Part shown: piece by piece, positions 3,865 to 56,960 of the stretch
Position numbering within the stretch: the stretch's first letter is position 1
Layout of the letters: every line of letters begins with the position of its first letter
NCBI GenBank assembly: GCA_918797485.1
Contig: CAKKNE010000003.1
Span: forward strand, 3,286,001-3,350,000
Direction of reading: 5' to 3'
Length of the DNA stretch: 64,000 nucleotides
Source: Pelagomonas calceolata
Taxonomy: Eukaryota
Position numbers and translations under genes: made by a program
Notes under the pieces: generated by a model
What the model saw: only the letters and a program-made list of their open reading frames with translations
What the model was told of the DNA's origin: nothing
Databases searched by the model: none

Positions 3865-4169
3865 TGAGAATCGCCGTTTTGATGGTTTTAAGCCAGTTGC
3901 TTGGTCGCTACCGAAATAACGACGCCAATTAAGACTATCAGAAAGCCGCCGGCCTGGTCGTCCGAGCGGAGCGTCTCGCCTGGCTTACTTTGACGCTGCG
4001 ACCCAGAGCCGGCTTTAGGTGGTGTACGGTGAGGAACGAGGCGGCACGTGAGAAACCACCTCCATAGACACCCCTACTAGGATGCTAATGAGATAGTAGT
4101 AACTTGAAAGGGATTTTGTATACGCTTTTTCTCCACCCCCCTCACGGAGATACTGAGTACATATCTTCC

Positions 4170-4198
4170 TTTATTTATTTATTTATTTATTTATTTAT
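4170..4198. repeat. (TTTA)n microsatellite; another at about 58946-58993
   Basis: Direct reading. Confidence 0.9.
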
Positions 4199-5576
4199 GG
4201 GTAGCTATCAATATAGGAGGGGCTTAAGCACCAAAAATCAATATAGACAGGCGTTAGTAAAGGGTAAATTTTAATATGGGGAAGCCTTAATTAAGCCAAA
4301 ATATGTCAATATTTTGCAGACACCCCCTATTTCGAGCCCGCGTGCGCGCATAAGCCCAATTTGATAAGTAGCCATATGGCGATCTCATAGGATGTCGGTC
4401 GCCGACTACACCGTATTCGGGGAGATCGTGACCGGAAGTAAAATTCTGGTTGCTGAATATCCTTCAAAGCCTGGATTTAGCAGTTGATGAGCACTGGGCT
4501 GGGCTGGACGCTCGGACGCTCGGACGCTCCGAGTCGGACGCCGCGGCGCGGACGCGCGGACGCGTGCGCGTCCGCGCACTTGGGTGCTATATAAACCCCA
4601 AAGACGCCTCTTCATAATTTGAAATTATCTCAATTTTTTTGGGGGTCCTATGCAACTACGTGACCAGGTTGTTAGAGTGGCTATAAAATAATAGTACGAG
4701 CCCCAGGTCAGGGGCCGTGCAAATCAACGAGCCCGACCCGGACCCCAAGAGAGGTACAGGGACCGCTCCGTGCCATTGGCAGACATTGCGGGCTGGCTGG
4801 TATTATGGACTGCTGGCATACATGTGGTCCAGCGCAGCCAAAGCAGCAGTTCACAACAAGGCTGCCCTAAAGCTCCTGAGGGAACGATGTTGAGCATCAG
4901 GTGTGTAGATTCAGCCGTTTCGCAGGGCTCTAGCTAGCCCTATACCTGGCCCAGCGCAGCGCCTGCATAAGATTAATTAACGACAGCCCGCCACTATAGC
5001 CATTCAAGCACAAGCAGAGCAACCTCACGATTCCCTGGGACACGACCCATTACTAGACATTGACCAGAAGGTTTGCCAGCGAACCCAGCTGGGCCGGCGG
5101 TGCAACGCGTACTGGCAGCCCCGTTATGCAATTCGTGTGGATAGTAGCGCAGTCCATAGACCCAATGATTATAGGCACGGAGCCATGATAGTTGCACGCG
5201 TAATATATATCGCAACCAAGCATCAGTAAGCCCCCCAGCTAGCGCGGCGGACGCCGCGCCCTACTATTGATGACGTTTGCGAGCCCACAAACGCTGTGGA
5301 GCCTCTATAATGCCCAAGAAGCGAAAGCACGATGCCTTAGCATTGCCAGATCGCGCGCTCACCGCGACGGGACGCTTGAACCCAGGTATCGCAGTCTCCA
5401 ATATGGTCAGGTCTTAAACTGCATATGTCAATATGGAAAGCGCTTACGTAGCATATGTCAATATGCAGAACTTCTCAAATTGACATTTGCTAGATAAGGT
5501 TTCTTATATTGACATTAATTCTTTAAGTCATGTCTATATTGATTGGTTTTAAAGACTTGTTATATTGACTATTCCC
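4199..5576. mobile_element. Degenerate TIR element (GGG...CCC ends, subterminal TCAATAT repeats), possibly PIF/Harbinger-derived
   Basis: The left end GGGTAGCTATCAATATA...AATCAATATAGACA mirrors the right end TGTCTATATTGATT...TATATTGACTATTCCC. A minus-strand peptide PIIIGSMDC near 5150-5180 resembles the Harbinger transposase GSxDC motif. Confidence 0.5.
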
Positions 5577-5825
5577 TTACAGAATCCTCCCTTTCTTACC
5601 AACTATTTAAACACAGTACGGCGTTGTGGTGAGTTGTCGGAACCGGGAAAGCGTTGACTCGGCACGAGTTATAAAAGAAGGTTCAGCTAGGATGCACTGG
5701 CAAATGGCGGGTCCGGCCGTCGTGCCGTCCAAGCCGCCGTCCCGCGAGCATCGCCGGGCGTCCTGGCGTCCTGGCCGCCCCCGCCGTCGCGTTACCTACT
5801 CATCTCACCCGTGTGTTTGAATCGC

Positions 5826-6020: not shown

Positions 6021-6369
6021 GCAGAAAATAAGTAGGGTGCGGTGGTATACCGACCCTCTGCAACGGTGTGAGTGAGTTTGGCGTAAGTGACTCCCCGTGT
6101 AATACTAGCACTAAGAATGAATGTGGTGTAAACCTTCATTACGTCAAGGTGGGACTAAGTAGGAGAGTAAGAGGGGCCTAGTGCCAGTGTAGTACTAGCC
6201 TGAGGGGATATATTCTTCGCACTCCCCCTGAACCTTGATATGGTTTGGTTTTTCTTTTTCTTTCAGTTTATAGAGTAGAGCTTCTGTGTCTACTCTATAT
6301 TGTGAACCACAAGCAAACAGTGCTTGTGTAGTTCTCGGTCGGTGTGTCTAAAGTAATTCGCGGACATGA

Positions 6370-6674
6370 TGATATTTACCAAAATGCACATTTCAATGAA
6401 ACGAACGAAAAGGATAGGGGACAATTTTCACCCCATATTCTCCTAAGGGAAACAAGAGCTTACCCTCATGAAAAGGGGGAGTGCGATAAATAGGGCGAAA
6501 TACCCCCCCTATCCTATACCCTTCCTATACACTTACATCACCCTTCAACACGCAACGCGTAATAAACACAGTTAAAACCAAAACTACTTAGTGTATTTAA
6601 GGTAGCTCCGCGGCAGACTATCTCAGCCGCCGTACTCCCAAAGGTGCGTACTCCTTTGGTCTTGCATATTCGCA
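6370..6674 (+). mobile_element. 3' end of an LTR retrotransposon: polypurine tract, then LTR 6482-6674
   Basis: AAAAGGGGGAG is followed by TGCGA...TCGCA; near-identical to the reverse complement of 21563-21875. Confidence 0.85.
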
Positions 6675-7983: not shown

Positions 7984-8234
7984 CTTCTTGTAGTACTAGC
8001 CTGCACAGCAGGTACCTATCCGCTGTAGAGAGAGAAACCTACTAGCCCATCCTACCCTAGATATGTATCTCCCACTCTCTAAATTTGAGTCTATACATTG
8101 AGTGTGTATCGACGCTACGGTGTAAACCAATTTGCTAAAAAACACTCTCGTAGTTAGGTTGGCCCAGCCTCTGGCTGGTGAGCTAGGACCCTGCTACCTT
8201 ACATAACGCTGCGACATACTCTTGCTACGCTGAT

Positions 8235-8316
8235 ACCTACGGTACCGCAGTACGGTACCTACGGTACCTACGGTACCAGCAAGTACCGTAGGTACCGTGG
8301 TACCGGTACCTACGGT
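8235..8316. promoter_or_regulatory. GGTACCTAC/GTAGGTACC array in the divergent TTL/kinesin promoter region
   Basis: TACGGTACCTACGGTACCTACGGTACC...GTACCGTAGGTACCGTGGTACCGGTACCTACGG. The same motif recurs at other gene 5' ends. Function is inferred only. Confidence 0.5.
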
Positions 8317-8374: not shown

Positions 8375-10504
8375 ATGCCAGATGAAAGTGTTAAGGTAGT
8401 TGTACGCGTACGACCGTTGTCGCGTAAGGAACAGCAAGATGGGCACCTTGCGACGACCGTGGCTGACGAAGATCAAGGCACAATAACCTGCAATAACCCT
8501 AAATCTGATATCGCAGATCCACCAAAAGTCTTTACTTTTGACGCCGTCTTTGCTTCCGGCTGCAACCAGAAATCTATTTATGATAAATGTGGAGCTACGG
8601 TAGTGGAAGCGGTACTTGATGGTTACAATGGAACAGTCTTTGCCTATGGTCAGACAGGTGCAGGTAAGACCTTTACCATGGAAGGTTTATCAGAACCCCC
8701 CGAGTTGCGTGGCATTATCCCAAATGCATTTCAACATATCTTCGACAAGGTGGCGCTCGCCGCGGAGCAACAGCACTTTCTAGTGCGCGCATCATACCTC
8801 GAGATTTACAACGAAGAGATACGCGACTTGTTGTATTTATCACGTGTCGGCTACTAATCTTTAAAATAGTTTATTTTATTCTAAAATGGTTGTGTGTAAT
8901 AGCGTCAAAAACACAGGTCCAAGGAACCAAAAAATAGATTGGATCTCAAAGAAAATGTGGACTCGGGTGTATACGTCAAAGATCTGACCTCTTTTGTGGT
9001 CAGGTCGTCTCATGAAATTGATCAAGTTATGCAGGCAGGTAAAAAAAATAGATCCGTTGGGGAGACGCTAATGAATGCTGGTTCGTCCCGGTCTCATGCC
9101 ATATTTACAATCATTGTGGAATGCGCAGAAGTAGATGAGAAGCGTGGTGAGCACATTCGCGTAGGAAAATTAAATCTCGTGGATTTGGCCGGGTCAGAAC
9201 GGCAGTCAAAGACAGGAGCAACTGGCCATCGACTCAAAGAAGCCACAAAAATTAATCTCTCACTGTCTGCACTTGGAAATGTGATATCTGCTCTTGTTGA
9301 TGGCAAGTCACAACATATCCCATACCGCGACTCTAAACTTACTCGATTACTTCAAGATTCTTTGGGCGGAAATACAAAAACAGTGATGTGCGCCAATTGT
9401 GGCCCAGCAGGCTATAATTTTGAGGAGACCATTTCGACTTTACGATATGCCAATCGAGCCAAAAACATCAAGAATAAGCCAAAGATTAACGAGGATCCCA
9501 AGGACGCTATGCTCCGTGAATTCCAGGACGAGATAAAGCGGCTCAAAAACCAGTTAGCTAACCAAGGCAACAGAAATCACAGGGCTACTATGAATGAGTT
9601 CATGCTGGAAGAAAAAGTCGTGGAGAAAATAGTTGAAGTGGAAAGAATTGTTGAGGTGCCGGGCGCAGCGACGGAGGAAGAGCTGGCTGAGCTTAAAGCA
9701 ACAGTGGATAAGGAAGCAGAACAAATGCGTCTCCGAGCTGAGGCTGAGATGAAAGAAGTCATCGACTCCCAGACGCGCACGACCAAAGAGCATGAGAAGC
9801 TACGTCAAAAACTCGATGCAGAAGCAGGTCGCGCTGCGCACTCTGAGAAGCAGCGCATTCTGTTGGAGAGGAAATTACGATCCATGCAAGAAAAACTGAT
9901 GCAGGGGGGTAGACTGTTGGATAAGGCAGCCAAACAGGAAGCGATGTTACGCCGCGCTCAGCTTGAACTTGAGGAACGTAAAGAACAAGAACAGGCCCTT
10001 GCACGCCAAGTCCGGGCGAAGGAAGAGGATGTATTTGCCCTGGAGGAAAAGTATGCGAGTAAGCAGGATGAAGCAGATGATAAGACCAGGAAACTAAAAA
10101 AACTTTGGCAGAGGCTTCAGTCGTGCCAAGCAGAAGCTCATGACGTGCAGGAGGAGTTCCAGCGTGAACGAGAGGACATGCTCGACACGATTCGTGAGCT
10201 TTCAAAACAACTTAAGCTAAAAGAGTTTCTAATGAAAAATTTTATACCCATTGGGGAGGAGCGGAAATTTGAAGTCCGTGCCACTTGGAATAACGAAGAG
10301 GAACTGTGGGACCTTGCGTGCCCCGCATTTTCTCATAGCCAACACCACTTTAAAGGGCACTGTTCTTGGTGTTCGGCCGGTGTGATAGACCTAAATCGAG
10401 ACTACACAGACGCAGACGAGCCCAGCAGCCATATACCAAATCCTTATCACAATTATGATAAAAGAGATGGAATTGCCAAAAAAGTAAGTTCATCTAAGGT
10501 TTAA
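8375..10504 (+). CDS. Kinesin-II (KIF3/FLA10-type) motor subunit; intron 8833-8916
   Basis: ESVKVVVRVRP, P-loop YGQTGAGKT, SSRSH, LVDLAGSER, HIPYRDSKLTRLLQDSLGGN, kinesin-2 neck NKPKINEDPKDAMLREFQ.EI, then a coiled-coil stalk. Confidence 0.93.
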
Positions 10505-10798
10505 AACTGAAATGAATGATAAACGCACTACTTTGTATCTCCTGCAACATGAAATATATATACTACTTATGTCTTGGACGGTATGCTGCAGTCTATTACA
10601 CTCGTGGCTCATGTTGCAGTATTTGAGCTGTCTGAACCGCCGGCGAATAATTGCAAGCTGGAGCTGGTGGTCTAGTGGTTTTAAAAGAAAACATACGGCA
10701 ACGGAAATGAGCCGAGGTCGGCCGAGTGGCTAGGCGGTCCTGGCTAAGCAAAGCAATATTACTAGTACTACTCCTCCCCGGTACTACCGGCGTGACTC

Positions 10799-11122
10799 CT
10801 AAGGTGCAATTTACGTGGGAAAAACGCGCAAACTACGCGTAAAGCACCGCTACAGGAGATCCGAGTCCCACTGGCACGTAAAAAACGGCGTAAAAAAGGA
10901 GCCGAGCCAATCGCTAGTTTTATGCTGTTGCGAGGTGCGTACTCTAGGTGTGCGCTTGCGCCGTACTCTAGGTGGCCACCAAGGCCTCGTTTAGTCGCTC
11001 TGCTGCGTATGTGCGGGTTTTACAAATAATTAAAAAGCCCGCGTAAATTGCGCGTAAAACACGCGTAAATTTACGCTGGACCGTTTCTCACGTAAAAAAC
11101 GCCGCACGTAAATTGCACTTAC
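10799..11122. mobile_element. MITE family C (hAT-like, degenerate 8-bp TSD)
   Basis: TIR CTAAGGTGCAATTTACGTG / CACGTAAATTGCACTTAC; flanks CGTGACTC / TGTAACTC (6 of 8 match). Paralogs at 43417-43868 and 23071-23230. Confidence 0.8.
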
Positions 11123-11399
11123 TGTAACTCCTCCTCCTCCTCCTCTACTACTACTTAGCGGGGACGCGACTCGGACACGAAACGCCACTGTAATCGTGAC
11201 CTCAGGTTGACTGGCGCAATGTTCCAGCTTATTTTGGGAGGAGCCCTGTCCGCAGCTAAGCGCACGATTGACCACAAACTCACAAGGACATCCTAGACGT
11301 ATAATGTATTCTAGTTAAATAAATAATCGGACGTTGTTAGCTTAATAGAATCGTCGAGTCATGCACCACCGAGCCTACACCGAGCCACCAAGATTGAGT

Positions 11400-14300
11400 T
11401 TAGTTCTGGTCCTTGCAATGAAATTTTGAACAGCGTCGCGTATGCTCAATGATGGAGAGGGATATCGGGAGACCATAGCACACTGGGGCGGCACCATTAA
11501 GGTTTCTTAGTTTTGTCTCTCTCCTAGCTGCGTTTAGAATGTCAGGTATCGGACAACTTGGGCTTTTAGCCATTGACTGTAGCAGATACAAAGTGATACG
11601 ATCAATATCACGATCTGTGACGTCCCACAGCATAGCAACAACGATCGGAGTCCCTCTAGCAAGCAGCTCGAGAGCCATTCCCTTTGCTTCAAAATCACCT
11701 ACTCGCGAGAGAGCACCCGAGGAACAGCCCATAAGCAGCACTGCAGACATGAAATTAGATGCAACAGCAGACTCCAGGTAAGCGCCTCCATAGCCGTGAC
11801 CGCAAAAAAGAAATGCAGCACAGTTCGGCATCTTGGCGGTCAGCTGTGCTGCGACATCACGGGGTGGCATATCACCGAGAGCAGCATATGACCACACAAG
11901 ACCACTCGTGGCGTTTGTCTTAGTATCGCCCAGATATTTTGCCAGCTTATGACGGGTAGAGGGCAAGTTCGCCTGTGGATCGACAACGCAGCAGGCACGC
12001 ATAGGAATATCATTATTGATGGTATCCGAGACACTTAGATTCATCCCTGTTGCAAGTGATAATGCAAATGCGAGGGAAGGCACGCGTGATATTGGTGCAG
12101 AACGTGGGACAGACAGAGCTTCGAAAGGCAAAAATTGGAGCTGCTTGTCCAGTGCTAAAATCATAGGTTGGCGAGCTTTCGCTACCTTTCGGGGTTGCAT
12201 CACACATTGTGATGTAATGGCCGCCTTTTGAAGCACACCAGCGAGCCGACCAAGCAGTGGCCTTTTTAGGCCCAAGTTGCTGAGCCTCAGGTCATCCAAA
12301 GCGGCCTTGAGATCCAAAATCGTCAGCTTGTAGAGAAGAGTGAGCCACAGACGAAGCAACATCTTCATGATGCAGGGGGAAGCGGTTCCTCTTATGTCAA
12401 CAACCCCAAACCTACTGGCACAGAGAAGCGTGTTGGCTTCCAGTAGAGTTATATTGGGTGCAGCCCAGAAGCATAGCTGCATGATCTGGTATTCAACACT
12501 AATCGGAACTTCGGCACTTTGCTTAGGACGGAGTATGGACGCAGGCTTCGTTGCAAAAAGCGCACGCATTGCACCAAGCCAAGACTTGTCAAAGCCAACA
12601 AGCCCAGCATGTAGGACTGAATCGAGAGAGTGCCGTTGGCACCACCAGATTCTGCGCGCAGCAGTATGATTGCTCCTGCTGGTAAAAAGCAGCTTCGAAC
12701 GTTGAGGCAGCAAGGACGCATCTGCGCGAAGACCAGCAGCAGAGGCCTTCAGAGCCTTAGCAGAAGTTCCAAGGGGAGAAGTCGAAGTATCTGAATCGTA
12801 CCAGCTTTCTGGGAGGCCTGAGCATAGTGTGATTGGTTGTTGACCACGCTGAAGCCGTGAAATCACAAGGTGCCCTGTTGGCGATATGAAACCTGCAACA
12901 AGGGAAAACGTTTTAGGAAACGGCGCCAGCAGCCGATCGAGAACATTCCGATCATGTGTTTCAAGAGTGTCGCACCAGCCTAGAGCTCCTGCATTTGGAA
13001 CTTCAAGTAAGCCCATGAGGAGATCATCTACTCCTGCCATTGCTCGGCTCAAGAGGCTATTTGAGTCGTTAGAAGTAGCAAACGCATGGCGTGCACGTCC
13101 CAATGACGAGTGTGCGAGAAGCGCCACAAGTGGGGACGAAACCGCACCTGGGACAAAGTGAAGTGCAGCCACAGTGAGGGCGCGAGCACTCTTTGCCGCA
13201 AGTTTCCACTCGCATTTTCGCCGGGCATAACTAAAGGCATGACGAAGCAAATCCAGGACTTCCGATGCAGCAGCAGTGTTGCTAGATGCCACATTGAAAA
13301 GTTGTCGAGCCAGGCGGTATCTAAGCCAGGAACTTCTTAGCATGATGGATGATGACTGAATGCGCAGTGACTCGCGATAAGTGGCCACTGCCCGAGACCT
13401 GCGACATCCAATGTCGATAAGACGGGCGCCGCTGCTTATAAGAAGCTGACAATGCCGCAATAAGCCAGCGTGACTTTGTTTGCCACTGATGGCATCGACC
13501 TGCCAAGGTGACGATTCAGTGAGGCATTCGTCTATGACTTTGAGGACTTTACTTGCTGACTTGTAGCACCTACCTGCAATTTCCAGTTTACCTATGCGCC
13601 TAAGTAGATCGCCCTCATTAAGAACCTGCTCAAGACATCGGATATTCTCAGGAAAGTCGATGCTATTATCATGACTAGCAAGGTCTAGAACCAATGCTGC
13701 ATCACCCCAATCCTGCAAGGAGATAGCAAGACACAATTCAAGCCCTCTTGCCGCCTGCCTTAATTTGTGACATTGCTTGATACTAGCTGCACGCTGTACA
13801 TATTTGGATGCACGTGCACTGCATCCCCGAACAAGCCAGAGCCGTGCAAGATGAAGCCAGAGTACACCCTGGATCATTGCCTTCGACTGTGCAGAATCTC
13901 GAATGGCATATAAATTGCGTTCACACCAGCAAGGTGGGAACCTCGAAAGTATCTCGAGAGAACCAAGAGCATTTGTGGCGCCCGAAATATTTGCAAGATG
14001 CATTTGTGTAGCGAACATTTCAAGCCCAATTTCTGCAGCTGCTCGCCGTTGCATATGGATAAGTGCTTCGTCCAACGCAATAGCTAGGTGTGCTTCAGCT
14101 ACGTTGCCACTCGGCTTGCCTTGCACACGAAGTAAATGATGCCGGTCATCGAAGTAAGGCGGGGTTCCAACCTCACAGCAACATAGATTTTCAAATGGTG
14201 CTACAACAGAGTCCCCACCGACAGTGACTAACATCGAAGAAGACGGCCCTATTGATCCACTACGAAGAGCCGCAATCGCAGACGACGCGATAATTGCACT

Positions 14301-16382
14301 GTGCAGCTGTGGTACTAGCCTCGCCAGTGCACCACATGAACGAATCTCACAAATGACGTTTTCGACAGATGCAAATGCATCCCGCAACAATGCTGTCGCT
14401 AACGCCAGATGTTCTACGTGTACTGAATGTAGATCGTGCAGCCCCTCAAGGCCTGAAAGCGCAGATGCTTCGTGGGTCACATCTCTGTAATGATTATTTG
14501 CATTCGACTCGCAGCCTATTGCTAATGCTAGGGAGCAACACGCAATGGAATCAGTAGCTGAATTAGAACCTGGTGACCCCATGCAATAATTTGCAAGTAC
14601 GGCACCAGCAGTATAAGAACCTCGGCGCACAAGCGCGATACTCGCGCGAGACAATGTTAGCGCAGCTCTAGCTACATCACATGTTGCCAGCTCCTCGGCC
14701 GCAGTGATAAATGTTGAGATGCTACTTTGTCTTTCGCAGATCCCGAGTCTTTTTCTAAGTACATCCTTGACATGCATCAAACCTGAAGATTGGAGTAAGT
14801 CGAGGAGGGATGGAGGTAACATAGTGTTAACTACAGCCCGCGAATAGCATGTGACAGCATCAAAAATCGAGGCCTCGTCAATGCAGTAGCAGGTCGACCA
14901 CGCAGCAGCCGCAGCAGCATCAAAGTCTCGCTTAAGCCGGTCCAGACAATTTGCAATCCCAATCCATGGCACGGCGCTGCCACTTGTCCGCAGACTAGCA
15001 CGTTTTAGAAGTGCAGCAGCCACGCCAAACGTACGAGTATCTGTTGCTCTGCGAAGAACTACGAGGCCAGTTGCTGCATAGCCCATCGCAGCTCGCTGAG
15101 CTGACGACATGCCCTCAGCAGACTTGGAATGTGTGGCTACTTTGTCGAGCGCACTACGCTTGGCAGCAAAACTGGCTGCAAGCCAACATGCATCTGCACG
15201 CTGGTTGCATGCACTACTTTCCTTCATATACTTCCCCCATTCATGGCGCGCCAGAGTAAGAAGAACTGTCTCATAATGTGAGTAGCCACATGCTTTTGAA
15301 TCAGAGTAATGTCCAAATGCGGTTGGCGCATTAGAAAGTGCTATCCATGCACGCCGCCACACAGAAGAAATATATTGGTCTGTCTTACTTATCTCCAGGG
15401 CACAATTAAAACACCTGTTAGCCTCGGCAAGTGCTATTGTTGGCTTTCTTTGCTTTCCAAGATCTGAACAGTAAAGAACTCCGTGAAACAATGGCCAGTC
15501 CCCTAGCTGTGCCCGACCCCTAGCTCGGACGCGCGCCGCTCCAAGCTTATCGCCAGATGCGTCTAAAGTTATCGCGCGTCGCGTGCACCACTCAAACATG
15601 ATGTGTGGCGTGGCCCTCCACGGATCAAGCTGTCCGTCAAGAGACGAAAACCACTGCACACGAGCAACAACAGAAGCAGGAGCCATCTTTTTGTGTGTCG
15701 AAAGGCCATGTAGGGCTTCACTCGTGACAATATCCACAGCTTCAGGTGCTACGGCGACAAGTACTTCTAATGCTGTGCGTCTACAGGTCCATGCTATGTC
15801 TGCCAATTCTGGAGATGCCGCCTCAAGTGCAAAAGCACCTTTCCAAAGTGTCGCTCGTAGTTTGTCTGCATACTCTCGCGGAGATATTGACTGCACCCTG
15901 CATTGCTCCTCTGTGGACATCACATAGAGTAATGTGGTAATAGCCCTGGCACTCCACGCACCTTTAGCAGCCAGTGCTTTTGCCCCCTTTAAGCTTGGGG
16001 TGGTGACGATACTGTTAAGTTGCAGCCGTGCAGCATTCACGCTAGCTCCCGCTCCGAGTGCTACTGCAGTGAAAGACCACGCATCTGCTCGTCGTTCTAG
16101 TCGTTCTTTAAGAACATCCGCCAATAGCAACGCGTGGATATTCGTGACCTTGTTTTCCACTGCGCGACTGATGGCTTGGTAGAGCCACTTATCACACGAT
16201 GAATCGTCTCCAGGGTAAGCCGCAAGATCATTGAGAGCTACAACTGCATCCTCGAAAGCTCTACGGCTGGCATGCTGCTTCAACCCAAGCTGCGTGCGTA
16301 ATACTAGTGACCTCACCTCTCCACCGCCCTCTAGTTCTACCCTATTGCAGCGTGCATTCGCACTTGCCTCCCGGCGCGGCAT
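11400..16382 (-). CDS. ESP1: Separase (peptidase C50)
   Basis: About 1660-aa ORF; C-terminus has LPFEAL, VVDPQANL, FLFCGHG (catalytic His), LLMGCSSG (catalytic Cys), LWDVTDRDID and APVCYGLP. First ATG is at 16382; the ORF-track start at 16424 is not ATG. Confidence 0.9.
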   Translation of the reverse strand: MPRREASANARCNRVELEGGGEVRSLVLRTQLGLKQHASRRAFEDAVVALNDLAAYPGDDSSCDKWLYQAISRAVENKVTNIHALLLADVLKERLERRADAWSFTAVALGAGASVNAARLQLNSIVTTPSLKGAKALAAKGAWSARAITTLLYVMSTEEQCRVQSISPREYADKLRATLWKGAFALEAASPELADIAWTCRRTALEVLVAVAPEAVDIVTSEALHGLSTHKKMAPASVVARVQWFSSLDGQLDPWRATPHIMFEWCTRRAITLDASGDKLGAARVRARGRAQLGDWPLFHGVLYCSDLGKQRKPTIALAEANRCFNCALEISKTDQYISSVWRRAWIALSNAPTAFGHYSDSKACGYSHYETVLLTLARHEWGKYMKESSACNQRADACWLAASFAAKRSALDKVATHSKSAEGMSSAQRAAMGYAATGLVVLRRATDTRTFGVAAALLKRASLRTSGSAVPWIGIANCLDRLKRDFDAAAAAAWSTCYCIDEASIFDAVTCYSRAVVNTMLPPSLLDLLQSSGLMHVKDVLRKRLGICERQSSISTFITAAEELATCDVARAALTLSRASIALVRRGSYTAGAVLANYCMGSPGSNSATDSIACCSLALAIGCESNANNHYRDVTHEASALSGLEGLHDLHSVHVEHLALATALLRDAFASVENVICEIRSCGALARLVPQLHSAIIASSAIAALRSGSIGPSSSMLVTVGGDSVVAPFENLCCCEVGTPPYFDDRHHLLRVQGKPSGNVAEAHLAIALDEALIHMQRRAAAEIGLEMFATQMHLANISGATNALGSLEILSRFPPCWCERNLYAIRDSAQSKAMIQGVLWLHLARLWLVRGCSARASKYVQRAASIKQCHKLRQAARGLELCLAISLQDWGDAALVLDLASHDNSIDFPENIRCLEQVLNEGDLLRRIGKLEIAGRCYKSASKVLKVIDECLTESSPWQVDAISGKQSHAGLLRHCQLLISSGARLIDIGCRRSRAVATYRESLRIQSSSIMLRSSWLRYRLARQLFNVASSNTAAASEVLDLLRHAFSYARRKCEWKLAAKSARALTVAALHFVPGAVSSPLVALLAHSSLGRARHAFATSNDSNSLLSRAMAGVDDLLMGLLEVPNAGALGWCDTLETHDRNVLDRLLAPFPKTFSLVAGFISPTGHLVISRLQRGQQPITLCSGLPESWYDSDTSTSPLGTSAKALKASAAGLRADASLLPQRSKLLFTSRSNHTAARRIWWCQRHSLDSVLHAGLVGFDKSWLGAMRALFATKPASILRPKQSAEVPISVEYQIMQLCFWAAPNITLLEANTLLCASRFGVVDIRGTASPCIMKMLLRLWLTLLYKLTILDLKAALDDLRLSNLGLKRPLLGRLAGVLQKAAITSQCVMQPRKVAKARQPMILALDKQLQFLPFEALSVPRSAPISRVPSLAFALSLATGMNLSVSDTINNDIPMRACCVVDPQANLPSTRHKLAKYLGDTKTNATSGLVWSYAALGDMPPRDVAAQLTAKMPNCAAFLFCGHGYGGAYLESAVASNFMSAVLLMGCSSGALSRVGDFEAKGMALELLARGTPIVVAMLWDVTDRDIDRITLYLLQSMAKSPSCPIPDILNAARRETKLRNLNGAAPVCYGLPISLSIIEHTRRCSKFHCKDQN

Positions 16383-16739
16383 GGGACCGTAATACACCGT
16401 AGGTACCGTAGGTACCATTATCAAAGAAGTAAAATCGACTCTTAAACTGGTTTCTCAGGGCACTCCTCTATCAACGACCGACGACGAGCTACGCCCAAGG
16501 GCGCCTAGCGCGGCGGTGGATGCGGCCTCTCCTCCTAAGCTTGAGATACGAGCTTGTACTGGAGCACTTGGACTGGAGCACTTGCATTTGAAATTGGAAT
16601 TGCAAGTTAGTAGTCAGTCACTTAGTCACTTTAATCGCTAGCGCTAGGCGGCCCACCCGTGGAACGAGCGTTGTACTTTCTTCTGTACATTGTAGCCCTA
16701 CCGCAGTATAATATTATATCGAAATTAACGCACTCAAAC

Positions 16740-17792: not shown

Positions 17793-18329
17793 TGCCCTTT
17801 GCACGCAGCCCTAACCATACAGTAGCTGGAAACAGCGACGTGGTATAGTAGCTCGCTGGTGGTCTGTGACTTTACTGGAAGTACACTGGCAATAAAAGAG
17901 GGCAATGAATATGACCTAGAATTGGAATCATCGGCAACTTGCCTCCAATTTGTCCCCAAGAGAGCATCGGGCGAACAACCCGGTCAGGTTTAATACCCTC
18001 AGGCTAATAAACTCGATACTAGATGGTGTTGCCAAAAAATACTAGTACATTGCGCGACTCAATTGCGGCACGAAACGCCACCGCGACTTACGCGTTCACC
18101 GGCCACCACTAAATGACTCAATAAAAGACGAAATCGAGATGAGAGGACACATCACAAAACGAGGTCCCCAGGGTCCCAAGGGCTACCTAGGCGAGCTCGA
18201 GAGAGACAGGGACTGCGTGTTGCCCCAGAGCGTAATCGCTCTTAAGAACACTCATCCCCCTGACTGAACTTGAATGCTTCCAATAAACGACAGTTATTAG
18301 TAGTATGTCAGTTACGATGTCCACACACG

Positions 18330-18750
18330 GACTAATTTGAGATTCGAGTTCCCAGCCACTGGCACTTGTGTTCCGGCAATTTCGGATACGGGCCCCAAAG
18401 AGTCCCTTTGTACGCCCCGAGACAGGGCTGGGGGAAAGGGGTCACTTTCGCGTGCCCAAATGGGCCTAACGTGCGGACTTAGCCTAACTTGCGGGTTTTC
18501 AGGATGAAAATAAAACCTCGCTTCCATGCTGGTAATTTGGTCTCCCAGGGGGCCTCGGTACCTATGGCGTGGGGAAGATACGTAGGCGCGGCCGGGTACC
18601 CGATGGGCTGCCAGATAGGTCGCCTGACGTGGCACGAAACGCCACCATGACTCCGATTCAGGCTGGCGACGTTCGCAGGCCACTAAAGTCGTTTCGCCCG
18701 CCCGTTTCGGTCACGTCCCAGAGGGGTACCTAGGCCCCCCTGGCTCGACT
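18330..18750 (+). mobile_element. MITE family D/E copy
   Basis: CTAATTTGAGATTCGAGTTCCCAGCCAC is shared with 21437 and, inverted, with 25443 and 59311. GGCCTAACGTGCG...TTAGCCTAACT.GCGGGTTTTCAGG is shared with 30867. Confidence 0.8.
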
Positions 18751-19349: not shown

Positions 19350-20981
<1,632 letters not shown>

Positions 20982-21562: not shown

Positions 21563-23055
21563 TGCGATTATGCAAGACCAAAGGAGTACGCACCTTTGGG
21601 AGTACGGCGGCTGAGATAGTCTGCCGCGGAGCTACCTTAAATACACTAAGTAGTTTTGGTTTTAACTGTGTTTATTACGCGTTGCGTGTTGAAGGGTGAT
21701 GTAAGTGTATAGGAAGGGTATAGGATAGGGGGGGGGGGGTATTTCGCCCTATTTATCGCACTCCCCCTTTTCATGAGGGTAAGCTTTTGTTTCCCTTAGG
21801 AGAATATGGGGTGAAAATTGTCCTCCATCCTTTTCGTTCGTTTCATTGAACTGTGCATTTTGGTAAATATCATCAGGTAGCACATGGGCATTTGCCTCTC
21901 AATGAATACACTTAATACTACACAGAAGAATTGGTAGAGTGTTCTGTAGATTGTTTTGTGGTAGGTCGTGGTGGTCGTAGTTCGTGGTAATGTAGCGTTG
22001 AGATGTCGAATAATTAGCAATCATTTGGGCCACCATAAGAGCTAGGAGCTTCATTAGGGTCAAAGCGTACCGCACGTCTCACTTGTGGAGTACGAGGAGT
22101 CGTACTAGGAGAAGGTGCGTCAGGCTCATTGAGTTGCTTCTCGAGAATGCGGAGAGCATATCTGTGTAATGGATCACTCATGCCTGCTATTTCAATCCGC
22201 TGACGCTCCTGAGTGGCGACAATGTGATCTAAAGCGATCATAACTACTTGGGTATATGAAGTTCCATCTCCTTTCTCCTCGTCATCTTGTGTTTCAGTCC
22301 ATACAGGGCCCGCTTGAGCTTAACAGTTGTGTGAAGCTTGCCGTCGGTGTCCCGTTACCTTATACCTTTGGGTAGGTCCATATATGACTGCTTTGAATCA
22401 AGATCGGACTGAATAAATGCTTGCGGAATATCGGAGTGCTTGATCGGGAAGCTACCCATCTACTGTCGTCGATATCCTCGGGTGCGTCTAAAATATCATT
22501 CAATGGCTTAGGAAGTCGTTGCAATTTGGACCTCCCTTGTGCGTTTTGACATCTAAAAAGACGACCAGCAGCTTGTACAGTTGTGCACTCATTATGTCAA
22601 ATTGTTCCTTTGTACAAGTGTTGCCAAGATTTATTGACCTCTTATAGCCATCCTCTTCATCCTGATCGGGATCGAGAGGCCAACCTGGAGGTGTCTCGGT
22701 CTGCAACCTAACAAATCTTGAGAATTCAGGTAATCTCTCTCTCACATTCTATGGCAAACGCGGTTCTCCAGAGAATGCCTCTTCTGAGGGCATAACCGTG
22801 TGGAGAAGACTGACATTTTTCTATGTTCGATATGTAGCTTTGACCAGGTTTGCAGATTGCGACATAGTCTTCTGATATCTTTGCTCTACGTGCGCCGGCA
22901 GAATGTTCCTTGAAGTACTTAATGAGCTTGGGTAACTTTTGCCAGTTGCAACCCAAGAAGTATAACATTCTTCTCGTATAAGTTTCTGTCTCGATACCAT
23001 TATCACTAACAAAAAGTGCAAGATGAGGATCTTTGTCCTTAGTTACTAGTTTCAA
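21563..23055 (-). mobile_element. Decayed Ty1/Copia LTR retrotransposon (3' LTR 21563-21760, PPT 21761-21771, RT remnant near 22360-22450) inserted into a MITE
   Basis: TG...CA LTR with 5-bp inverted ends. Minus-strand peptide IKHSDIPQAFIQSDL..SYMDLPKG matches the Copia RT D...AF...L...YM..P.G motif. Confidence 0.8.
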
Positions 23056-23070: not shown

Positions 23071-23230
23071 CGCAAATTACGCACAGCCGGGCGTTTTTTT
23101 ACGTGAGAAACGGCCCAGCGCAAATCACGCCGTGTTTTACGCGCAATTTACGCGTGCTTTTATTAATAAACCCGCGCGCACGCAGCCTCACTGCGGCAGC
23201 TGAGCCAGAGAGCGCCTAAAACTTTGAAAC
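23071..23230 (-). mobile_element. MITE family C, partial inverted copy
   Basis: TTTTTTACGTGAGAAACGG.CCAGCG...TTTTACGCGCAATTTACGCG is the reverse complement of 11040-11100. Confidence 0.75.
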
Positions 23231-34687: not shown

Positions 34688-34814
34688 GCTGTCCTGCTGA
34701 ACTGAACAAGAAGCGCAGCACTTACACTAGTACCGTAGGAGGTACCGTAGGTACCTGCGTACCGTACACTCATACACTCATCTGCGGTGCCTGTTCTACG
34801 GTGTTGCCAGGCAG

Positions 34815-36769: not shown

Positions 36770-37144
36770 CTAGGTTGGCACTTACCCGAGGGGTTATTAA
36801 CCCCAATCGTGGCCCGGGGTCAGTAACCCGGGTAATTACCCGTTAGTACGGGTTATTAACCCCGGGATCTTATAGAGGGGTAGGGGGAGGGGGGCTCACG
36901 GGCCACTGGCGCGGGCCTGGGCCGCGCCAGGCCACATGACTTGGTACTTGCCTTGGCGCACCTGTACGTATCCAAAAGCTCAACGGGCTGCTTGCGCCCA
37001 TCCGCTTGCCCGGAGGGGCCTTTCGCTAATCTCACTAAACGGGTTTAGTCGAACCCGTCGGGTTGGGCGGGTACTAACCCCGGATCCCCTCCGAGGGGTA
37101 ATGATAGGTTAAAAACGGGTAATTACAGGTAAGTGCCAACCTAG
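36770..37144. mobile_element. Intact 375-bp hAT-like MITE (family B) with perfect 8-bp TSD
   Basis: TIR CTAGGTTGGCACTTACC / GGTAAGTGCCAACCTAG; TSD CCACTGGG at 36762-36769 and 37145-37152; internal GGGTTATTAACCC motifs. Confidence 0.92.
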
Positions 37145-40386: not shown

Positions 40387-41673
40387 CACCAAGTCCCGGC
40401 GTCGATACAAGCGTAAAACCTAGTACTAGTACTAGGGGCACTTTAGGTCCGGGTTTTGGGGCCCTGGAGGACGGCTAGCCGCGTTTTTCGCGCGGATTTT
40501 TGTACCGAGCCCTGCACCGGGTCGATTACGACCCCGCGGAGGTGGTTTGGGGCTGGGGGCGACCGCCTCTGATTTAAGGGAATTTATTTCGTGACGAAAA
40601 ATGGCCTCGGGATGGGCAACGGTACACTAAATCGACCCGAGGTGAGCCCTTAGCCCGCGGGATAGCTCCGATGACACCCGGCGATGGCTGAAACGGCCAT
40701 ACCCGCCCAGGTGGGGAGGGGTGGCGTGCGGCCCGGCAGTAGGCTTATCGGCTCGGGGTTCGTGACGGGAACAAGAACTTGCACCCACAGCCACAGCTCA
40801 ACAGAAGCACCCTCGGGGACCACATAGCTTCCCCGCTCCTCGGGCGTGTAGGAGACCATTTCAAAAATGTGAATTTTGGCCGCTTGTTCGATGGCTTTTG
40901 CGGCTCCAGCGCGGAGTCAAAACGCGAGAGGCCCGATCCGGGCACGATTCCGCCGGCTAGAGGGACACATTCGCTCGAGGGGGATGGCGGTCACCGACGG
41001 TGGGGAGCTCGTAACGGCGGATAACGGGGGCGACAATATTTTGGCTTTCCACGCCATCGCCGCGATTCCCATCAGGAAAGCCTCAACCAACTCGAAAGGT
41101 CACCACGCGGTGGTATGAATAGTATCGATGCGCGGGGTACCGCGTTTTCGACCAGGGTGCTGCTACGTGGCTTTCCAAAGCCTCGACAGAAGCGCCGCAC
41201 AAACGCTTCGCGCCGAGCGTCGCGACCTGCCCATCGTCGGTCGTGTCCATTTTCCTACAGCGCAGGTTGGCGTCATCGCTGAAACACCCCTGAACACCCC
41301 ATCTCGCGTCTCGAGATCGTAATCATGGTAATGCTAAGCTGCTGGTTTTGGCGTGCTGGTGGTCCGTGGCGCTGCGGTTGGTTCTCTCTTTCTCGGCAGG
41401 GCTGCGCGATGCAGGGTGAGCCGCTATGTACTCACATCTCTCCTAATCGTCTACGCTGGCCAGCACGCAGCGTTTAAAGACGAAATCGGGCCATCCAGAG
41501 CTCGTCTCGACGCGAGAGCCGATTCGCGCAAAGGAGCTATAACTTTGCGGAGGCGTCGCCGGAGCCCGTCCGACAGCCCTCGAGGCCTAGGGGGAGCTAT
41601 AGTCTCGTTTTCCTTTTGTTTGCTAAACCTGTTTTGTCTTAAAGTGCCCCTACTAGTAGTAGAGCCGGTGTGG

Positions 41674-42161: not shown

Positions 42162-43397
42162 CACTGGCAGGCTTATTAGTACTAGTAGAATACCGCCAAG
42201 GGACAGCAACCGTCACGGTGACTTGAGTTGAACGTGCCAGCAGGCCAATAATATGACCCTGCAAAGAGAGGCGTCAGGAAGACCTCAAACCTCGCAAATC
42301 TCCTGGGTTATTTGGCAGTTCCCTATCCTATCCTATTGACCTACGCAACCGCAGGACCTAGATCACCGTGAGTCCGTGACGGGCCCGTGGGCATTTAAGA
42401 AATTTGGTACTTCGGCGATCCCACAAGGAGTCCAAGTCGTCACTTCGGGGTTTAATTCAAGCCCGCGGCCCGGAGGTCGAAAATTGGGTCCTTGAGTTTT
42501 GTTTCCCCGGCTTTCTTAAGCTCAGGCTGCCGCCGGCGGTGTCACGGTCGGCAAGGCTGCCCTGGGCCCTAAGGGTCTTCAAGTTTGGTGGTCCAAAATT
42601 ATGCACGCCATCTCAATCATGATGATTCCTGAATTATTGTTCTTTGCATTGTTCACTGTAGACAAATCAGGAAGCCAACATAGTTCGAGTTTTATTGGCT
42701 TGACTAAAACAAAAGAACCGACCGGCGTGACCAGCCTGAATTGCAACATCCCAAACAGACGGAATCAGCTTTCAAGGAGCTTATCATGATTGTGTGGGAT
42801 GAGCATAGCCTCAGGCTGAGCAATCTGAATGAGTGCAGATATAATAAAGATAAAAACATAACGTGAATATGCCACTCATATCAGCAACTTGAACTTGAAC
42901 TTGAACCACAGAAGTATTTAGTAGCAAAGCCTTCCAAGCCTGAGTCCTCTCCGAGTCTCAGTCAGGTCGTTCTTACGCTTTGGCGGGTGGACTCGGAGGG
43001 GTCGGTAAGTCCAAGGTCAAAAATGTTGTAAGAGCCATAACTTCCATAACTTGAACTTGAAGAAAAAAAGCACTGGCACCTCAGGCCAGAGTAGTTCGAG
43101 CTTCATCAACTGGCGCTTCTTGATGAATTCGAGTCACAGAAACTCAGGATAAAGTAGCCAAGAAGCGCGCAAGGCCGCGTCTATTGTACTAAAGCCTGAC
43201 TCGCCGCCGCCGGCGGAGGGAGCTGGTAACTTGAAACCCCGCCTCCGGGCCACAAACTTCCGATTCGTAAACTCTGTAACTCAGGCTAATCATTTTTTTG
43301 TCAAAACATGCGCGATTATTTTTGTCAAAACATAGTGGGATGTGTTCGCACGGCCCAGGCCGAGAGGATCACATTGCACGTATTTCAAGTTCAAGTT
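42162..43397. other. Second dense cluster of XY-C-rc(XY)-G-XY scars
   Basis: Matches at 42162, 42180, 42212, 42521, 42531, 42541, 42578, 42616, 42783, 42810, 42886, 42892, 42898, 42937, 42950, 42990, 43048, 43054, 43071, 43208, 43228, 43280, 43384, 43390. Confidence 0.85.
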
Positions 43398-43416: not shown

Positions 43417-43868
43417 CTAGGGTGCGATTTACGTGGAAAAAACGCGTAAGTTACAAGTAAAGCACCGCTACAGGAGATCCCACGTAAAAAACGGCGTAAA
43501 AAAGGAGGTATCCAAAAGTCCTTCCAGGGCTCCCGAAGCCGGCGCTAGCAGCCCTTTTAGACACTAGCTCGCGATCAGCACCTCGCAGAGTGTGGCTGCC
43601 CCAAACGTTGTCAGAGCCGAGCCAATTGCTAGTTGCATGCTGTTGCGAGCAAGGTGTGCACTCTAGGTGTGGGCTTATGCGCCGTGCTCGTGCTGCTATT
43701 GAACTGCGTGGCCACCAAGGCCTTGTTTAGGCGCTCTGCCTGCGTGTGTGCGGGTTTTATAAATAAATGCACGCGTAAATTACGCGTAAATTGCGGCGTA
43801 AATGACGCTGGACCGTTTCTCACGTAAAGAACGCCCCGGGCCGGGGCCGTGCGTAAATCGCACCCTAG
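43417..43868. mobile_element. MITE family C, longer copy
   Basis: Perfect 17-bp TIR CTAGGGTGCGATTTACG / CGTAAATCGCACCCTAG. Contains about 120 bp absent from the 10799 copy. TSD not clean. Confidence 0.85.
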
Positions 43869-52834: not shown

Positions 52835-53355
52835 AGCTACTATGCTGGCGGTTTCCCCCTCGAAGTCCCCCTTGGTATCCGTGGCGTCTGTAGGAAGCGC
52901 AAACACGGCAACCTTTGGTGTATAGTTTCCCAAAAGGTCGCCTGACGCGGCACGAAACGCCACTGGCGCGACGTTCGCGTGGGGGCCCTTCCGGCCCCTC
53001 GCCTTTTTAGGGCTCCACACTCGGCCAGAATGTGGATCACCCCCCTGGGGTCCATTCGCAGTAAGTTTCGACGTTCGGGCTATTAAAGGGGCGGCGCTAC
53101 AGCCCCCGATTTAATCGGGGTCCGGCCCCGTACATACCCGGGCCAAGTTACATTACATAGTGTAGGTCTACCATGCCAGTCGCGGCGCGAAACGCGGCGC
53201 GACGTTCGCGTTTGGCCCAACTTTTGGCCCTTCCGGCCCCTCGCTTTTTTGGGGCCCCACACTCAGGCTCCGCCAGAAGAAGTTCCCCCCTTCGGGCTAT
53301 TGACGGGGAGGCGCCACGGCCCCCGTTTAATCGGCCGAGTGGGGGCCGGCCCCTT
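52835..53355 (+). mobile_element. MITE family D/E: one copy 52835-53130 plus a partial tandem copy 53180-53355
   Basis: Long similarity to 30926-31219. Confidence 0.8.
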
Positions 53356-55892: not shown

Positions 55893-56960
55893 GGAAGCCA
55901 GCGCGATCGTTGGCTGTTTTCGCGTCCCCGAATCTCCAACACCGTCTTACATTACATGCCAATATAGTCGAATAACCATCGAATATTTAATTCTCCGGGT
56001 CCGGCTACCTACGCACCGTTGGTACCTACGGCCCGGTTACCATGGTACCTACGGTACCGTGGGTACTACCTACGGTACGGTAAGGAGCTACACCTACAGA
56101 TCTTACCTCCGATACCTACCATAATGCCGTACGGCAGCGTGTTATGCAGCCGATGAGAATAATGGTACAGAGAATATCGTGACGAGTATATGCGTTAAGT
56201 TGTTTTCGTCTACGCGGGATATCCATCCACTCGTGCTAAAAATTAACGAGGCGCCAGAGGAGCTCTCCTTGAGGCCCTCAATGCCAAGAGAAAACCATCA
56301 GTTGGAACCAGGGCCGCTTGGGACCGCGGAGTTCTGCTCAAAAGATGCTGGGTCCTTGTTACAGCTCTTGGATCTTCGGCGCACCCGGGACTCGATAGCA
56401 CATTCGATGGGGGAGACACTGGCATACAATGTGCCGGCTCCTAATCGTGCCAGCTGTCCCCCAGCTCTGGCGGTCATTGAGGCAGAGGTCTCGCGCGTTG
56501 AGGCCAGCATTCAGGGAGGGCTTCGCAAGGTGTGGCTGGGACAGCAACAAGCATGCAAGACTTCCGGCCCATCACATGGGACTTACCCCTTGTGCGGGCC
56601 CGGCGGCGACGTCTGGGTGTCGGCCGCAATGACGTCGCGAGCGGCGTAATTGTGGGGGGCGGGGTGTGGGGGCGTATAGAGGGGCAGATCACAGGTCAAT
56701 ACAAGCGCTCGAGCACCGGTGCGCGCAGCAAGCGTGCGCAATAGAAGACCTCAGATGTGTGCAGGTGGCGCTTGGAGCCGAGGCAAACCGCGAGGCGGAG
56801 GCAAAACTTGCTCTTGCTCGCGAGCTGACAGCTGCGCACACAGTTTGTTGCTGTGTGGTACACTTAGGTCTTGTTATGAAAAACCTAAATGTAGGCAGCA
56901 CTCATACAAGCCAAGGCGCACACGCAAGAGACCCAGGATAAGTGGGACTCATACTCGCGC

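Follow-up and report, generated by a model that had tools for sequence, protein, structure and literature searches.

Six-base scars of the form XY-C-rc(XY)-G-XY in a marine pelagophyte: most likely footprints left by an unseen transposon excised with an unusual cut geometry

Two copies of one repeat, here called family C, differ by one clean 12-base gap when they are aligned, which raises the question of what process adds such bases and how often it acts. Both copies lie in a 64-kb stretch of DNA, referred to below as the window. From 10855 to 10890, the first copy reads GGAGA-TCCGAGTC-C-CACTGGCA-CGTAAAAAACGGCG, where TCCGAGTC occupies 10860–10867 and CACTGGCA occupies 10869–10876; the copy at 43473 reads GGAGATCCCACGTAAAAAACGGCG, with a plain TC at 43478–43479 and a plain CA at 43481–43482. 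The same rule describes the sites at 10860 and 10869: a dinucleotide XY becomes XY-C-rc(XY)-G-XY (rc, reverse complement), for a net gain of six bases each. We refer to the resulting eight letters as a scar, TC-C-GA-G-TC at the first site and CA-C-TG-G-CA at the second. The original prediction described both copies exactly, and proposed that the scars are two separate insertions that slippage does not explain.

The direction of change was read from a sample of wild copies. One exact-pattern scan of metagenome contigs, with a pattern that accepts empty and filled forms alike, gave 41 loci; L003, L015 and L017 were set aside as non-algal chance hits that lack a family C element, and the remaining 38 were kept. 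Adding the two copies in the window brings the sample to 40 family C copies at 14 loci. Neither insertion is present in 36 of these, three carry the CA insertion only, and the window copy alone carries both. At the 13 other loci, all 27 copies are short. At the 10.8-kb locus itself, nine wild alleles have no scar and three have the CA scar only (L023, L031 and L036, the three alleles closest to the window). The TC scar (10860–10867) is the youngest, being confined to the window allele; all 12 orthologous metagenome alleles lack it. The CA scar (10869–10876) is absent from the other nine. The nesting of these states follows the SNP distance measured across 3 kb of adjoining coding DNA: alleles 23–30 SNPs from the window are scar-free, as is L014 at 8 SNPs; L023 and L036, at 3–5 SNPs, have the CA scar; and the TC scar is added in the window only. 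The multi-copy contig also lacks the 12 bases in all four metagenome runs (depth 135/171, 51/62, 218/254 and 97/97). Because copies at other loci are short and the alleles at the 10.8-kb locus form a nested series, we conclude that the long form is derived and is not the family consensus. Alleles with zero, one and two scars all exist at this locus, confirming two separate, exact +6 insertions of the predicted form. New scars arise between alleles only ~0.1% apart. In the region 10004–16400, the wild alleles also fall into two haplotype groups whose coding DNA is ~0.8–1% apart, and these groups differ in mobile elements at 4.2–6.7 kb.

Family C is a hAT-like MITE that serves as a neutral target. 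It is ~430–450 bp long, non-coding and multi-copy (14 loci), with end motifs of the type TAGGGTG...CACCCTA and perfect 8-bp target duplications in four of the four intact cases listed. The host of both scars, copy A (10799–11122, + strand), is internally deleted with decayed ends and a decayed 8-bp duplication (cgtgactc / tgtaactc). Copy B (43417–43868, + strand) is full length, ends in CTAGGGTG...CACCCTAG and has empty TC and CA sites, and a fragment at 23077–23187 (− strand) retains the right part only. In the available text of PMC6004678, hATm elements have TAGGGTG...CACCCTA ends and 8–9-bp duplications; family C shares the end motifs and the 8-bp duplication but differs in a further C/G at its termini, beyond the motif. 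The window and 38 loci yielded no autonomous partner for it. Both contain many hAT-like MITEs with C...G ends, and a second CTAG-ended MITE, at 36770–37144, has a perfect 8-bp duplication, CCACTGGG, and contains other sequence in L026. Since its own target duplication is 8 bp, family C is not the maker of scars that retain a 2-bp duplication. It is their passive target, and the scars are not confined to it.

When the window and 38 loci were aligned all against all and indels were kept if flanked by 10 identical bases on each side, 153 distinct indels resulted (1 bp, 48; 2 bp, 12; 3 bp, 18; 4 bp, 4; 5 bp, 7; 6 bp, 22; longer, 42). Six bases is the commonest length after one. The exact scar form accounts for 17 of the 22 clean 6-bp indels and three of the five 12-bp indels, some of the 12-base events reusing six-base ones; a random six-base deletion would have this form in 0.7% of cases across the whole window, or 1.1% in non-coding DNA. 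Tandem duplications make up two of the 22 six-base indels, against 17 with the inverted middle, so simple slippage fits poorly, as originally argued. When 2.6 kb were compared with four metagenome runs, five of the nine indels listed were gains or losses of 6 or 24 bases at scar sites, and the remaining four were of 1–2 bp. Scars have been gained on both sides, in the window allele and in wild alleles. The same scars are gained and lost in independent metagenome assemblies, which rules out an assembly artefact.

Two other kinds of length change were observed. Deletions of 42–118 bases at 2–3-base microhomologies separate alleles or copies at 8832–8916, 18271–18315 and, in family C, 10901, pointing to active microhomology-mediated end joining. 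Pile-ups of a 9-base GTAC-based unit (GTACCGTAG / TACCTACGG) occur in the window at 8244–8309, 16395–16420, 34732–34760 and 56006–56067, in L028 at ~7281 and in L033 at ~9842. They make up a second class of stereotyped change, polymorphic by 9, 18 and 22 bases, for which the +6 model offers no account.

The scar motif is abundant well beyond the 10.8-kb locus. There are 123 matches to XY-C-rc(XY)-G-XY in the 64 kb, compared to means of 17–28 and a maximum of 39 in Markov simulations of order 1–4. With the fixed bases replaced by each of the other 15 pairs, the number of matches is 14–59. Only a 2-base unit gives a peak; units of 1, 3 and 4 bases are not enriched. Among all templates with a 4-base spacer, the motif ranks first (z = 25.5), and all 16 XY are enriched. 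For each of the 16, XY is kept at both scar ends, as a retained target duplication would be, with rc(XY) in the middle. Long ORFs hold six matches in 25.4 kb, which is background, compared to 117 matches in 38.6 kb outside them, where ~12 are expected. The idea that scars add two residues in frame to genes was rejected; in the one case compared, importin beta, the motif is no insertion relative to 10 homologues.

Matches cluster at kb 1–3 and kb 42–44 of the window. The first hot spot (1638–2359) lies upstream of an M24 peptidase gene, with 26 matches in kb 1–3 and several scars polymorphic between populations; the second (42162–43397) has 25 matches in kb bins 42–43. Individual scars can be polarised at several further sites. 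An AA scar at 4101–4108 is absent in L023/L031 and in runs X9 and X14, and a variant in X4 at 4099–4106 may be a different scar a few bases off. A CA scar at 18357–18364 lies in another repeat family and is empty in the other window copies compared, and a CT scar at 53262–53269 lies in a third family, where the paired copy is empty. Within family C copy B, a CC site at 43834–43848 carries nested scars: the consensus has CC, L024 and L026 have a +7 insertion, and the window has a further +6. Repeated removal of scars from 93 kb of non-redundant non-coding DNA recovered 317 + 38 + 5 = 360 scars, or 2.3% of bases, with ~30 expected by chance. The excess density is 4.4 per kb in low-GC loci (201 vs 13.7 expected) and 1.9 per kb in high-GC loci (30 vs 6.8 expected).

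The +6 insertions are therefore derived, recent, still polymorphic, present on all 16 dinucleotides and depleted in genes. We think it probable that they mark the excision of an unseen cut-and-paste DNA transposon, CMCT/CACTA-like in having C...G ends and making a 2-bp target duplication. The donor site would be XY[C...G]XY. The non-transferred strand would be nicked one base inside the element, and the flanks sealed into hairpins whose tip is the terminal C of the element. An Artemis/SNM1-type host nuclease would then open the hairpins 2 nt 3' of this C, leaving the 3' tails XY-C-rc(XY) and rc(XY)-C-XY; the covered part of a related pelagophyte's annotation includes one SNM1A-1C-like nuclease. 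The 2-bp duplication would ensure that the two tails always pair through their final two bases, and fill-in and ligation would give XY-C-rc(XY)-G-XY. The hairpin intermediate is deduced solely from the +6, +3 and +7 products. The most likely mover would be a CMCT-clade (CACTA/Plavaka-like) family.

This footprint model makes testable side predictions, +3 and +7. A string model of the hairpin tails returns +6 for all 16 XY through pairing of the last two bases, an extra +3 at palindromic XY through five-base pairing around a C:C mismatch, and an extra +7 at AA, CC, GG and TT through one-base pairing. Both side products are seen, in small numbers. Six of the 18 three-base indels have the form palindrome-C/G-palindrome (null 3.9%, p = 4e-5), as do five of seven non-tandem XY-b-XY cases (null 21%, p = 0.006); the test was not blind, as three such indels were known before the idea formed. 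The +6 rate is lower at palindromes, at 65/23,542 (2.76 per 1000) compared to 272/67,403 (4.04 per 1000) elsewhere (p = 0.005). Counts of +3 words hold for TA (185 vs 120) and AT (154 vs 114); for GC, C/G was not separated from A/T, and for CG it barely was. The four +7 words occur 10 times vs 2.3 expected, one of them as a polarised insertion, while control words occur 2 vs 2.3 and 18 vs 11.6 times; AA and TT alone give 3 vs 0.8. A 1-base slip following a +6 insertion could likewise produce a +7 word.

The search for the mover covered a small fraction of the genome, namely the window and 38 loci. Scans for terminal inverted repeats (TIRs) and duplications, for presence/absence and for repeat boundaries found no element flanked XY|C...G|XY there; they gave hAT-like, TA-flanked and LTR-like elements. 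Of 2012 inverted CA...TG pairs, 137 are flanked by a 2-bp duplication, vs 126 expected by chance. No transposase was found among 21 + 87 ORFs scanned against Pfam (the 87 being a subset of 143 listed) or four ORFs compared against PDB. The covered part of the related pelagophyte annotation, for which repeats had been masked beforehand, has no entry for PF02992, PF18758, PF05699 or Plavaka. No donor allele with an element at a scarred site was seen in the small sample of 15 orthologous loci or among the loose ends listed, and long footprints of the hAT type formed no clear class. A 961-bp gap with a 2-bp overlap (L010 vs L002) was rejected because its ends are not C...G.

One candidate for the scar-making element is a polymorphic TIR-like insertion at 1–1550, which is absent from L009, L018, L023 and L031. 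Its right end is G, and this final G precedes an AC that matches the empty site. There is an inverted match between 19–42 and 1429–1452. The left end lies ~80 bases outside the window, and the insertion contains subterminal repeats and a 122-bp internal repeat (806–927 / 1106–1227). It may be hAT-like, because its end resembles that of family C. The candidate's end pattern had no match in prokaryote genomes and none in the loci; a match in viral contigs (L042) was taken as chance from the 100 bases viewed.

Several other mobile sequences were noted in the window. TIR elements with GGG-type ends at 4196–5580 (1.4 kb) and 40434–41651 (1.2 kb) are absent from some wild alleles, and the latter has TA scars flanking both sides. 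A very high-copy short element at 8026–8228 (summed contig depth ~40x single-copy) has TAG...CTA ends and a possible 5-bp duplication, and is absent from L008, L009, L018 and L039. A young repeat occurs in opposite orientations at 6364–6674 and 21563–21878 (96.5% identical, ~10x single-copy depth); its end is TG...CA-like, and it is possibly an LTR.

Other processes could be proposed for the scars. Replication slippage, quasi-palindrome template switching or an assembly artefact would account for the short inverted copy within each scar, yet the C and G are fixed, no pre-existing palindrome is necessary, and identical scars are gained and lost across independent metagenome assemblies; we regard this group of explanations as highly improbable. 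We rank equally low two hAT-based schemes, excision of family C itself and canonical excision at a 4-bp C-N-N-G duplication. The latter geometry would give the same eight letters, and C...G-ended hAT-like MITEs are abundant here, but it needs a C before and a G after every scar. Isolated scars have no fixed flanking base: C precedes 139 of 406, and the base at 10859 is A. These flank counts refute a canonical hAT cut on a C-N-N-G duplication and indicate that the target is not the source of the C and G; moreover, the duplications of family C are of 8 bp (4/4 intact cases listed).

An unlikely but more serious possibility keeps the unseen transposon and dispenses with the hairpin: a staggered cut would leave a single 3' C on each flank, and a Pol theta/Pol X-type polymerase would template-switch the inverted dinucleotide. 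This would account for the constant C and G, and is consistent with the small deletions at 2–3-base microhomologies among alleles; according to the accessible part of PMC11292364, Pol theta can extend a stem-loop held by two base pairs at its terminus. However, it requires two exact template switches every time, and once scars are removed, products that are shorter or lopsided show weak enrichment at best (XY-CG-XY 1.02x, XY-C-rc-XY 1.3x), while +3 at palindromes follows directly from 5-nt hairpin tails. Somewhat less probable still is a scheme with no element at all, in which 2-nt staggered breaks by a host enzyme (Spo11/Topo VI-like) are followed by fill-in, addition of an untemplated C, hairpin closure and rejoining. 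Spo11/Topo VI-like enzymes cut with a 2-nt stagger, and this route would give an identical string. The window and loci yielded no element, scars cluster in intergenic hot spots, and, according to the available text of PMC9481584, a related pelagophyte encodes SPO11. Against this, low-GC regions are proposed there to be recombination-poor in the related alga, and it is in low-GC loci that excess scars are denser (4.4 vs 1.9 per kb). The genome also contains many mobile TIR elements, which does not favor an element-free origin. Finally, we know of no chemistry by which both ends would gain exactly one C and be closed into hairpins.

The preferred reading, excision of a transposon through flank hairpins, can be compared with known footprints. 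Tc1/mariner excision leaves TA, element end bases and TA. The scars resemble this in keeping the target duplication, in having element end bases between, and in their fixed length; they differ in that Tc1/mariner uses TA only with a fixed core, whereas here any XY serves (TA makes up 15 of 337 scars) and the core has the target's reverse complement at its middle. For hAT, MULE, Transib and RAG, the portions available of PMC5499845, PMC5873905 and PMC13041557 describe hairpins on the flanks, P nucleotides, joining by microhomology and host opening of the hairpins at the tip or 2–4 nt from it. Ac/Ds footprints and V(D)J coding joints are thus similar to the scars, with a palindromic joint insertion made through a flank hairpin, off-tip opening and microhomology joining. 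In the same texts, Ac/Ds gave 28 footprint types in 128 clones, unlike the one dominant product here, and has 8-bp duplications rather than 2 bp; its palindrome centers on the complement of the flanking base, whereas the scar center is a constant C/G. Because the Ac/Ds center is not an element base, the proposed nick inside the element is without precedent in the portions of the literature compared. Hairpin footprints are therefore already established, and the differences here are the constant tip base, the 2-bp duplication and the single dominant product.

Terminal C...G together with a 2-bp duplication, which is what the scar requires, is known from CMCT-clade transposons. The sections available of PMC12730594 and PMC6004678 give mostly CA...TG ends and 2–5-bp duplications for these families; the 2-bp duplicators are CMC-NA_1/ENS1_Cis, with ends CAC...GTG, and PlavakaB, with ends CATCA...TGATG. 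The same sections give no excision footprint for CMC-NA_1 or PlavakaB. The window and 38 loci yielded no element of this kind. The XY-C-rc(XY)-G-XY rule was not found in the literature searched, most subscription papers lying outside it, and the words 'transpos', 'indel' and 'footprint' are absent from the main text of the pelagophyte pangenome preprint.

The host is a widespread marine pelagophyte alga. Genes in the window include separase, kinesin, radial spoke protein 3 and importin beta, the last 77% identical to clusters holding Aureococcus proteins, and at least half of the window's words occur in 20 of the 24 runs listed, mostly marine metagenomes. An intron of a DEAD-box helicase gene, at 19690–19836, carries a CGCGTCGATGGCGT motif, a putative introner motif of pelagophytes that is found again in high-GC loci (L035). 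The GC content of the window is ~51%, and that of family C loci elsewhere reaches 62–65%. The window resembles in this respect the 52% GC troughs of Pelagomonas calceolata, which are proposed centromeres in the text available of PMC9481584; low-GC regions of a related alga are reported there not to accumulate transposons.

The scars are real, derived, recent and widespread in the genome, and excision footprints with an unusual cut geometry are their most likely source, the element itself being unseen. They would record heavy mobile-element traffic in the kind of low-GC region reported to be transposon-poor in the related alga. Each scar would also read out the cleavage chemistry, namely the position of the first nick, the point of hairpin opening and the joining of the ends, for a class of transposon with no described footprint in the literature searched, and would provide a sequence-independent, datable and polarised marker of past transposition. 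More tentatively, a hit-and-run transposase or host enzyme with an undescribed cutting geometry, sealing one C into each flank hairpin, may have made the +6 scar the main source of indels longer than two bases in a widespread ocean alga; the scar may have come to make up more than 2% of the alga's non-coding DNA, with the element itself seldom retained.
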